DNA of 64,000 nucleotides, taken from contig JAUCBJ010003966.1 in assembly GCA_032718475.1 (NCBI GenBank), forward strand, positions 25,251 through 89,250, given 5' to 3'. Under the pieces are notes generated by a model that saw only the letters and a program-made list of their open reading frames with translations, was not told the DNA's origin and ran no database searches. The stretch is from Nemertoderma westbladi (lineage: Eukaryota > Animalia > Xenacoelomorpha). A program made the position numbers and the translations under genes. Shown here in pieces: positions 1-58,965 of this stretch; positions within the stretch are counted from its first letter, which is position 1, and each line of letters starts with the position of its first letter.

Positions 1-535
1 ACCTAAAATACGGACACAGAAGTATACATATAGCAGGCATTATACAAAGAGGTTGACCTAAAATACGGACACAGAAGTATACATATAGCAGACATTATAC
101 AAAGAGGTTGACCTAATATACGGACACAGAAGTATACATATAGCAGACATTATACAAAGAGGTTGACCTAAAATACGGACACAGAAGTATACATATAGCA
201 GACATTATACACAGAGGTTGACCTAAAATACGGACACAGAAGTACACATATAGCAGACATTATACACAGAGGTTGACCTAAAATACGGACACAGAAGTAT
301 ACATATAGCAGACATTATACAAAGAGGTTGACCTAAAATACGGACACAGAAGTATACATATAGCAGACATTATACAAAGAGGTTGACCTAAAATACGGAC
401 ACATAAGTATACATATAGCAGACATTATACAAAGAGGTTGACCTAAAATACGGACACAGAAGTATACATATAGCAGACATTATACAAAGAGGTTGACCTA
501 AAATACGGACACAGAAGTATACAAATAGCAGACAT
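1..535 (-). repeat. 55-bp tandem array made of the PC exon-18 acceptor junction (about 10 copies visible; runs off the window)
   Basis: Minus-strand unit is ATGTATACTTCTGTGTCCGTATTTTAG|GTCAACCTCTTTGTATAATGTCTGCTAT. In phase 1 the post-AG part reads GQPLCIMSA, the expected lead-in to the AMKM biotinylation motif. Confidence 0.9.
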
Positions 536-781
536 GTTTTGTAAATAGTAAACAGTATGCATTGGGGTAAATATAATTTATTTATATATAGTTAAAAATA
601 AAAACAAATTCCAATTTACATGAAAAAATCTAATTTTTAGTAAAATAACACTTCAAAGGATAAATGAATGTTATAGTTGTTGTGTCCTACAACAATTTAA
701 TTTTATCTGTTTAACGATTTAACATTTATTTTGTTACTAATTACCATATAAACTGTTTTTTTATGGTTTATTGAGACTAAC

Positions 782-1034
782 CCTTTTCAACAACGTCATC
801 TACATTAACTTTAACGTCTATGATTGATCCTGGCATTGGTGCCCCCACACTACCACGAACCCCCTTCAGAGCTTTGGGATGAACGTGAATCTCTTTCTGA
901 GCTTTGGTGTCCTTTATGTAAACGGATCGCAAACCCCCGTTCACCTCGAAGAATACCTCGCGTTCCCCCGCCGGGGTCAGGTCTCCCGTAGCCAGGAGTT
1001 TTATACGAATCGACTTACCCCGTTCTAATCCAAT
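782..1034 (-). CDS. PC: PC exon 17
   Basis: [12 protein letters not shown]...[16 protein letters not shown]...[27 protein letters not shown] acceptor, GTTAGT donor, phase 1. Confidence 0.92.
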
Positions 1035-1458
1035 CTAAACACATTTACAATATGATATTTCCAGCAACATATTTCAATGCCAGTAAAATACACAAATCAA
1101 CAAAATGTGTAGTCAGTAAGAATTATTTAATATCGCAATGCTAAAATGTTGACAATATTATCTAATGATATTAGCAGACGATTTGACGCGACAATTTATT
1201 ACTAGGCGATATCATTGATATTAATTGAGGATAACCAACCAACTTCGGCATTAGTGGCACAAATCATAAACTTTAATCTTCAGATCCACATCATAAAAAA
1301 AACAGGTATCTGTATTACATTTTTCACCGGAATCAATGTATGGTAGGGGAATAAATTGTTACTAATGTGCACTGATTGGTCACACAGACACCTACGGAAC
1401 GATTAATTAAACACAATCGATAATAATAGCATTAGATTATATTGGCACAGGAACTCAC

Positions 1459-1710
1459 ATCAATTTCCTCAGCCACATTAGCACCAACGAAGAAGTTCCT
1501 TGTGTTGACAGCCGTTACTGGTCCGTAAAGGTCGACGAAGTTGAGGTAATCATCGGTGACCTTTGGGTAAAGAGCGGCGCTGACTACTTCCTGGTCCCGT
1601 ATGTCGTGATTTGGATGCTTAGCAACCAGCTCCGCTCGCAGTTTATCGAAATCCAAATCGGGAAGCGACTCTCCCGGACGTCCTTCTAATACCGGTTTAC
1701 CTTTTAGAAC
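1459..1710 (-). CDS. PC: PC exon 16
   Basis: VLKGKPVLEGRPGESLPDLDF...SAALYPKV...FFVGANVAEEID; TAG acceptor, GTGAGT donor. Confidence 0.93.
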
Positions 1711-1979
1711 CTAAAACATAAGGGCCGCCATTCTCTTCAAAAGATTCTAGAAGATTTACAAACTAGAAATATCACTGTACTTAACTTTTGCAATGGATAT
1801 TTAATAATTCGAATTGTGATCCTCTACTAACAGCCCAGACAACGGCATTTCGCAACAACAATAACTTAAGTCTCTCTTACATCCATTCATTAATTTAAAT
1901 TGAAAATATTTGGATATTGTTGAGACTCAGATACATTCGTTACCAATTAACTTTATGCAGTAAATATGTTCTTTAAACG

Positions 1980-58100: not shown

Positions 58101-58608
58101 GATGTAAAGCATCTACCCCATTCCCCTTAAAGCAAATACCATAGCAGGGATGTATAGCATCTACCCCATTCTCCTAAAAGCAAATAACATAGCAGGGATT
58201 TATAGCATCTACCCCGTTCTCCTAAAAGCAAATAACATAGCAGGGATTTATAGCATCTACACCGTTCCCCTAAAAGCAAATAACATAGCAGGGATGTATA
58301 GCATCTACACCGTTCTCCTAAAAGCAAATAACATAGCAGGGATGTATAGCATCTACCCCGTTCTCCTAAAAGCAAATAACATAGCAGGGATGTATAGCAT
58401 CTACACCGTTCTCCTAAAAGCAAATAACATGGCCGGGATGTATAGCATCTACCGCGTTCTCCTAAAAGCAAATAACATAGCAGGGATGTATAGCATCTAC
58501 ACCGTTCTCCTAAAAGCAAATAACATAGCAGGGATGTATAGCATCTACCCCGTTCTCCTAAAAGAAAATAACATAGCAGGGATGTATAGCATCTACCCCG
58601 TTCTCCTA
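52118..58608 (-). repeat. 48-bp tandem array made of the PC exon-3 acceptor junction (about 110 copies)
   Basis: Unit TGCTATGTTATTTGCTTTTAG|GAGAACGGTGTAGATGCTATACATCCC is 21 nt of intron plus ENGVDAIHP. Confidence 0.96.
52808..53809. mobile_element. Non-autonomous hAT-type element (1002 bp) inserted in the 48-bp array
   Basis: TIRs TAGAGTTG(A/C)AACAGAGAC; 8-bp TSD CCATCTAC at 52800-52807 and 53810-53817. Confidence 0.88.
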
Positions 58609-58705
58609 ACAATAACAAACCATTACGGAATGCAACTTCGAGGCACATCGTTTCAATAACAAAGATGTTGCGGAAAGTTGACATTGAAATATATTTTATA
58701 GTTAT

Positions 58706-58826
58706 GAGGGGAGGGGGGGGGCTGGAGGGGTGGATGCGTGGGTGGAGGGGGGCTGGAGAGGTTGGGGGGGGGGGGGGGGGGGGTGGAGGGGTAGGGGTAG
58801 TGGGTGGAGGCTGCGGGGGTGGAGGT
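58706..58826 (+). repeat. G-rich low-complexity tract (possible G-quadruplex)
   Basis: Many G runs, including one of about 20 nt. Confidence 0.6.
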
Positions 58827-58860
58827 GTGTTAATGTAATAGAGAAATACGGTGGTTTAAA

Positions 58861-58965
58861 ACGCTATCTGTACTAAACTAACCAACACAACGCTATCTGC
58901 ACTAACCAACGCTATCTGTACTAACTAACCAATGCTATCTGTACTAACCAATGCTATCTGTACTA
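58861..58965 (-). repeat. Small array of about 19-23 bp made of the PC exon-2 donor junction (about 5 degenerate copies)
   Basis: Repeated TACAGATAGCRTTG|GTTAG. Confidence 0.85.

Follow-up and report, generated by a model that had tools for sequence, protein, structure and literature searches.

Minisatellite arrays seeded at exon–intron junctions of a pyruvate carboxylase gene in Nemertoderma westbladi: probably an unusually large case of intronic 'mirages'

The DNA analysed in this study is a stretch of 64,000 nucleotides (the window) from Nemertoderma westbladi (Xenacoelomorpha; NCBI GenBank assembly GCA_032718475.1, contig JAUCBJ010003966.1, positions 25,251 to 89,250 of the forward strand), and its subject is an animal pyruvate carboxylase (PC) gene, several of whose exon–intron junctions have been multiplied into tandem arrays. 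The gene lies on the minus strand with 17 exons within the window, all introns are of the GT-AG type, and the model can be read through 1,141 codons without meeting a stop. The exons, in window coordinates and in order of transcription, are as follows.

59345..59492, minus strand: coding exon 1, with the start codon at 59492
58949..59133, minus strand: exon 2; a spliced contig links its proximal donor to exon 3
51979..52144, minus strand: exon 3, whose proximal acceptor is used in RNA
51620..51883, minus strand: exon 4
51225..51331, minus strand: exon 5; in RNA its proximal donor leads into exon 6
44016..44182, minus strand: exon 6
31675..31837, minus strand: exon 7
30355..30537, minus strand: exon 8
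22367..22604, minus strand: exon 9
21811..22192, minus strand: exon 10
18790..19958 overall, minus strand: exons 11 (19958-19718), 12 (19430-19181) and 13 (18918-18790)
7761..8774 overall, minus strand: exons 14 (8774-8659) and 15 (7940-7761)
782..1710 overall, minus strand: exons 16 (1710-1459) and 17 (1034-782)

The PC protein was 73% identical to its best hit, with 7 gap positions, and the cluster of that hit includes oyster PCs; exon 10, of 127 residues, showed 77-84% identity to known PCs, and the exon translations matched the biotin carboxylase and HMGL-like Pfam families. In a quick tree of 34 rows, from which annelids, echinoderms and cephalochordates were absent by name, the long branch of the protein fell among bilaterians, in none of the vertebrate, insect and bivalve clades, and grouped loosely with protostomes (SH-aLRT 94, not starred). 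The guanine-cytosine (GC) content of the exons was 51% vs 33% for array-free introns, and 13 of the 17 introns measured 41-424 nt once their arrays were collapsed. A marked donor preference was also observed, as 8 of the 17 donors start with GTTAG or GTTGG instead of GTRAG.

Arrays were detected with Tandem Repeats Finder (47 rows), and junction copies were counted as matches, with at most 3 mismatches, to the 24-mer spanning each of the 33 in-window junctions. The eight junction arrays, together with one larger copy found inside an array, are listed below.

58860..58965, minus strand: 19-bp array at the exon-2 donor; about 14 exon and about 5 intron nt per unit; about 4-5 degenerate copies
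52113..58609, minus strand: 48-bp array at the exon-3 acceptor; about 31 exon and about 17 intron nt; about 113 copies in two blocks; 110 decoy AGs
51394..51645, minus strand: 53-bp array at the exon-4 donor; about 24 exon and about 29 intron nt; about 5 assembled copies
44271..51260, minus strand: 31-bp array at the exon-5 donor; 223 copies
30579..31702, minus strand: 32/35-bp array at the exon-7 donor; about 26 exon and about 6 intron nt; 34 copies; 32 decoy donors
22578..30277, minus strand: 33-bp array at the exon-9 acceptor; about 26 exon and about 7 intron nt; about 230 copies; 195 decoy AGs
23041..23209, minus strand: perfect 169-nt copy of the start of exon 9 within its own array; a second perfect copy, of 71 nt, at 23723-23793
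1994..7783, minus strand: 36/37-bp array at the exon-15 donor; about 18 exon and about 19 intron nt; 160 copies; 159 decoy donors
1..535, minus strand: 55-bp array, very likely at the acceptor of exon 18; about 28 exon and about 27 intron nt; at least 9.7 copies, the array being cut by the window edge

The junction 24-mer recurred at 7 of the 33 junctions, namely the donors of exons 2 (2 matches), 4 (5), 5 (4), 7 (33) and 15 (19, with each half matching 135-156 times) and the acceptors of exons 3 (104) and 9 (145), and the other 26 were single-copy. All copies were in direct orientation, and none was found on the opposite strand for any of the 33 junctions. The eight arrays are mutually unrelated in sequence, and each unit consists of contiguous exon edge and adjoining intron; in 7 of the 7 testable arrays the intact exon is the proximal copy, from which head-to-tail copies run into the intron. 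Their periods of 19-55 bp are those of minisatellites. Together they occupy 27,991 bp, or 47% of the gene span, and affect 8 of 34 junctions; with three intron-internal arrays added, tandem array makes up 65% of the gene span. Decoys, taken as copies within 2 mismatches of the true site, numbered 4, 7, 4, 32 and 159 for donors 2, 4, 5, 7 and 15, and 110 and 195 for acceptors 3 and 9. A preliminary description of the sequence had claimed eight unrelated junction-seeded arrays at these donors and acceptors, a total of about 28 kb at about a quarter of the junctions, an intact proximal exon in the seven cases inside the window, several hundred decoy splice sites (511 by the present count) and a gene inflated by its arrays. 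All of these claims were borne out, seven arrays through recurrence of the 24-mer and the eighth through its translation: read after the AG in the phase of exon 17, 8 of 9 of the 55-bp units give GQPLCIMSA where mammalian PC P0053 has GQPLCVLSA, and because of this match the array is very likely derived from the acceptor of exon 18, an exon outside the window.

The same description was only partly right about the exon-5 donor. The 31-bp array is seeded at the junction, as it had stated, with the true donor in 3 units, but the dominant unit is a deleted derivative, 202 units carrying a chimeric TTA/GTGAGT that is probably best explained by a 40-bp seed having lost 9 bp. In the exon-3 array, each 48-bp unit finishes with an in-frame TAG. 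Units of the 33-bp array hold only about 7 intronic nt (22605-22640, 30238-30260), and the ancestral end of that intron now lies 7.6 kb upstream; for its pyrimidine tract and branch point the working exon-9 acceptor must therefore rely on repeat sequence of exon origin. At codon 465 (22595-22593), in the motif after intron 8, the PC studied here reads N, against P in 29 of 30 homologues. The array consensus carries N as well, so this change is older than, or contemporary with, the exon-9 array.

Splicing was read from assembled contigs of one run, X4, which had been labelled DNA by guess; because its contigs skip the 95-nt intron 3, X4 was taken as spliced RNA. In one contig the first donor of exon 2 was joined to the last of the 111 acceptors before exon 3, past 110 decoy AGs, and in another the first donor of exon 5 was joined to exon 6. 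The latter contig was unbranched and 2,843 nt long, and in total length alone it fits exons 5-17 plus 184 nt. The preliminary description had left the choice of copy to RNA junctions; in the X4 contigs the exon-proximal site is used at all three readable array edges, donor 2, acceptor 3 and donor 5. Each of the 511 decoys tested would lead to a premature stop (511/511); the set comprises the donor and acceptor decoys counted above, and neither the exon-18 copies nor the 202 chimeric sites at donor 5 belong to it.

Read support came from four runs of three samples, of which X1 is perhaps the assembly's own sample, and X2 and X3 represent one other sample from another study. Depth was read on the window interval 51190-52240, and three units were checked in the reads, the 48-bp unit, the 53-bp unit and the first unit of the 31-bp array. 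Unique DNA had a depth of 23.7 in X1, 20.1 in X2 and 5.5 in X3. Relative to it, the 48-bp unit reached 101x, 148x and 47x, and the 53-bp unit 87x, 204x and 51x, respectively, ratios that, as summed contig depth, are a rough guide and not a copy number. The 48-bp ratio in X1 agrees with the 113 assembled copies, and the 48- and 53-bp units are real DNA, not an artefact of assembly. The 53-bp depth is far above the 5 assembled copies, so that either a shorter allele was assembled or the assembly collapsed the array; the donor-4 array may accordingly vary roughly twenty-fold between alleles, or it may have been collapsed. Among the locus-bearing runs, no read or contig spans a whole array. Confirmation in sequencing runs thus extends to the 48- and 53-bp units, deep in two samples, and not to array lengths.

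The arrays also carry traces of their origin and growth. Microhomologies of 2-5 nt are found at array ends. Seeds with at most 9 intron nt account for 4 of the 8 vs 1.3 expected if the junction fell uniformly within the unit (P=0.03, with breakpoints judged by eye), a pattern that would fit mostly exonic duplications surviving only with a full splice signal. Spliced exon-exon joints were sought on both strands and 0 of 16 occurred in the window; with units of contiguous exon and intron, this indicates that the template was DNA or unspliced RNA, and templating by spliced mRNA, one form of the RNA-templated repair named in the preliminary description, was not supported. Each of the 5 large junction arrays contained exact internal repeats, 157-607 nt long and separated by lags of 0.17-1.9 kb, and one of 1,494 nt was present in the 27-bp array of intron 13, which is not junction-derived; growth thus appears alike in both kinds of array. 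No gradient of divergence with distance from the exon was found in these five junction arrays (|rho|<=0.12 in 5/5). Feedback of the arrays into coding sequence was considered and rejected, since conserved residues were changed at 4 of 49 positions at array edges vs 14 of 152 at other edges (Fisher P=0.78 vs the remaining protein).

Repeats across splice junctions are known from other animals. The 'mirages' of amphioxus Adh3 are said to have been defined by Canestro et al. in 2002. In the available text of two amphioxus papers, a mirage is a minisatellite whose unit spans an exon–intron boundary; examples are given in Adh3, the globins BflGb6 and BflGb9, TnC and PGBD5, at 5' and 3' boundaries, with Adh3 units of 10-72 bp, two junctions in PGBD5, normal splicing, length instability (somatic instability in the case of Adh3) and an origin called unclear (PMC3087553; PMC3902484). 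The PC arrays resemble them in having a unit across the exon–intron boundary with the splice signal repeated, in affecting both boundary types and more than one junction per gene, in overlapping unit sizes (19-55 bp vs 10-72 bp) and in use of the authentic splice site at the three junctions readable in RNA. All three sequence features of a mirage, that is, a boundary-spanning unit, a retained GT or AG and a head-to-tail minisatellite, are present in the PC arrays. Allele-length polymorphism like that of mirages is suggested for the 53-bp array by summed contig depth only. The difference is one of scale, since the mirages of BflGb6 and PGBD5 have 2-7 copies in the accessible text, whereas PC arrays reach about 230 copies and 5-8 kb, affect 8 of 34 junctions and fill 47% of the gene.

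Junction-spanning variable number tandem repeats (VNTRs) have also been documented in human genes. The part of PMC1557585 that was available lists F7 IVS7 (37 bp, 5-9 copies), CBS IVS13 (15-20 copies), LMNB2 (100 bp, 10-15 copies), PDGF intron 4 (81 bp, 16-18 copies) and the interferon-inducible 6-16 gene (25 pseudo-sites), and reports that the most upstream donor was selected in F7 constructs, and likewise in LMNB2 and PDGF. The PC gene shares with them a donor reiterated within the intron, intact pseudo-sites and, at donors 2 and 5, use of the most upstream donor; unlike the PC arrays, the human VNTRs in these examples affect one junction per gene, involve donors only and have ten times fewer copies. 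The acceptor-3 array of PC differs further in that the AG in use is transcribed after 110 decoys, which first-come scanning does not explain. The preliminary description knew of no such recurrence at about a quarter of one gene's junctions and saw in the arrays a lineage-specific route to large introns. Neither novelty nor restriction to one lineage is supported, as junction-spanning minisatellites are, within the accessible text of these sources, already a named class in amphioxus, with two PGBD5 junctions, and occur in five human genes, and hence in chordates. The PC arrays are not a new kind of element, and they are an unusually large example of the known mirage class.

Considering these results, the explanation we favour, with a probability of about 0.62, is that the arrays are mirage minisatellites that arose by neutral seeding, passed a filter of survival and grew by block expansion. 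This corresponds to one of the two options offered in the preliminary description, that of a slippage-prone genome tolerating its duplications. First, duplications of 19-55 nt would be produced by slippage or break repair in a repeat-prone genome, as the microhomologies at array ends suggest. Second, duplications internal to exons would be purged, and those reaching just past the GT or AG would leave the exon whole and place the extra copy in the intron. Third, the spliceosome would take the exon-proximal site, as it does at donor 2, acceptor 3 and donor 5 and presumably at the remaining junctions; at donors this would follow from first-donor scanning, known from human F7, and at acceptors probably from exon definition. 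RNA spliced at a decoy would acquire a premature stop and be removed by nonsense-mediated decay (NMD). Fourth, the neutral array would gain and lose blocks hundreds of bases long, which are visible in the arrays, through slippage or unequal exchange, and longer pieces of true exon would sometimes be copied again. The excess of arrays at junctions would likely result from seeding in GC-rich exons, short native introns, one-sided protection from deletion and the choice of a window for its pattern. The findings show no sign of function, and the arrays are likely tolerated clutter.

Several observations weigh against this explanation. If seeds fell uniformly over the tolerated positions, 1.3 of the 22 arrays would be expected at junctions, where 8 are observed (P=2e-5); with the transposon-filled intron 6 left out, 2.3 are expected and 8 observed among 11 (P=3e-4). 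The excess persists with introns capped at 300 bp (P=0.0025) or 150 bp (P=0.04), all these P values being inflated and not generalisable because they come from a single gene chosen for its pattern. Uniform seeding and survival alone do not account for the junction count, and GC seeding, deletion protection and window selection are postulated as extra biases. With GC-rich exons, and with 55-57% GC in two of the three intron-internal arrays, seeding biased towards GC could explain some of the excess and would need no splice targeting, yet the 27-bp array, 9.4 kb long, has a GC content of only 23%, so that high GC is not required. Furthermore, X4 contigs break at the exon 4-5 junction (51331-51620), with a depth of 276 upstream and 542 downstream. 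Some use of decoys at donor 4 is possible, and a single-nucleotide polymorphism or 3' bias could also explain the break; assembled contigs lose rare isoforms.

The other option of the preliminary description is a mutational process that targets exon edges, for example because pausing of the spliceosome on nascent germ-line RNA gives rise to breaks or R-loops, with later growth as in the favoured reading. We regard this as unlikely, though it is the most serious competitor. PC is a housekeeping enzyme, so its transcription in the germ line is likely, which speaks for targeting. So do the 8 of 11 locally born arrays found at junctions vs 2.3-4.7 expected, the clustering of breakpoints close to the splice signal, seen in 4 of the 8, and the renewed, larger-scale copying of the exon-9 acceptor (169 and 71 nt, both 100% identical). 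Junction repeats in animals as distant as amphioxus (PMC3087553, PMC3902484) and human (PMC1557585), as the available text of these papers reports them, point the same way. Against targeting stand the inflation of the P values by one gene picked for showing the pattern, the lack of any spliced-RNA template (0/16 joints) and the intron-internal position of the largest array, that of 27 bp. It is conceivable, at the same low level of confidence, that exon edges are hot spots through transcription- or splicing-coupled breaks and that unrestrained growth then turns the duplications into multi-kb satellites. If so, junction-seeded satellites would be a main, genome-wide route of intron enlargement, and acceptor arrays of 110-195 copies would be a natural test of exon definition, in which every earlier AG, the ancestral one included, is bypassed.

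A regulatory role is much less probable. Here the decoys would be a device whose graded use sends PC transcripts to NMD, or multi-kb arrays would slow transcription, and array length would tune the enzyme level. The premature stop predicted for 511 of 511 tested decoys fits this idea, but nearly any intronic insertion yields a stop. Nearby pseudo-sites are used in some human junction VNTRs (CBS, 6-16), according to the accessible part of PMC1557585, and the contig break and depth step of X4 at the exon 4-5 junction could be read in the same sense; against this, the proximal site was used at all three RNA-readable array junctions. Moreover, the eight units are unrelated, and their copy number is seemingly labile, as with the 53-bp array (5 assembled copies vs about 50-200x read depth).

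Tandem duplication over proto-splice sites as a source of introns reportedly goes back to Rogers 1989, Zhuo et al. 2007 and Gao and Lynch 2009. That the arrays are by-products of such intron gain across AG/GT sites (the Rogers model), a link also made in the preliminary description, appears less probable still. The likeness is a tandem duplication carrying AG/GT beside coding sequence, and the model was put forward for mirages in the available text of PMC3087553. Introns were mapped through the 1,178-residue bat PC, taken as colinear with the human protein, and introns 7 and 15 fell at c.1185 and c.2898, which we take to be human intron positions. According to human PC splice variants, introns lie at c.321, 751, 903, 1022/1023, 1368/1369, 1825, 2473 and 3288 in the variant table of PMC9096210. 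Introns 2, 4, 6, 8 and 12 of the present gene map to human c.321, 751, 1022, 1368 and 2473, and introns 5 (c.858) and 17 (c.3400), which would suit intron gain, are not among the positions in that table. However, introns 2, 4 and 8, with 4 of the 8 arrays, coincide with human c.321, c.751 and c.1368; these introns therefore predate their arrays, and at them the duplications lengthened old introns and made no new ones, whereas intron gain over proto-splice sites makes new ones. In addition, every array-bearing intron retains 41-283 nt of non-array sequence beyond the array.

The least probable alternative is that arrays or their lengths are artefacts of long-read looping or mis-assembly: no read record spans an array, and the 5 assembled copies of the 53-bp unit do not agree with its depth, so that some lengths must be either wrong or specific to one allele. 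Against this, the units differ in structured ways (nested exact blocks, a transposon with target duplication, deletion derivatives), two samples, each from a different study, hold the 48- and 53-bp units in abundance, the 101x of the 48-bp unit in X1 fits 113 copies, and the mismatch runs towards too few assembled copies.

What distinguishes the PC arrays is thus their scale, 100-230 copies vs 2-25 in the published cases cited here, and the junction excess within one pre-selected gene. Within a body of mostly non-subscription papers, we found no genome-wide test of junction preference for such repeats and nothing relevant on arrays of comparable size or on satellite-driven intron expansion or gigantism. 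The gene points to a genome in which a test for junction enrichment would have power, and the locus lends itself to distinguishing exon definition from first-come scanning in the choice of 3' splice sites. Such arrays also mislead gene predictors and short-read assemblies.

Other repeats and elements in and near the gene are listed here, none with an assigned strand.

8899..18336: 27-bp x350 array in intron 13, 9.4 kb, the largest array in the gene and not junction-derived
20430-21322 and 20004-20118: 45-bp and 22-bp arrays in intron 10, intron-internal and not junction-derived, 55-57% GC
52808..53809: non-coding insert of 1,002 bp, located about 14 units from exon 3 within the 48-bp array; terminal inverted repeats of 22 nt and a flanking duplication of 8 bp

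The 27-bp array contains a duplicated block at a lag of about 4.2 kb. Donor 12, in inverted orientation, was considered as its source and discarded, as only 10 nt are shared and 16% of shuffles score equally. A resemblance of the 22-bp unit to donor 9 was taken as chance (match in 1% of shuffles, one of six tests, 2.3 kb apart), and the 45-, 68-, 41- and 13-bp arrays had no match to PC junctions. The 1,002-bp insert is probably a hAT-like non-autonomous element (miniature inverted-repeat transposable element, MITE), judging from its termini and flanking duplication. Intron 6 (31838-44015) is 12 kb long and filled with inverted-repeat elements, several arrays lying inside such elements (about 35828-37734; 40084-41246, with 15-bp repeats in both arms; 41714-42707, with long palindromic arms; and 33588-34194); a 96-codon frame within this intron, at 35979-36266, had no Pfam match. 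A 68-bp x28 array without a PC-junction match lies upstream of the start codon, at 61390-63334, and could be part of an unannotated exon of the 5' untranslated region or of a neighbouring gene.

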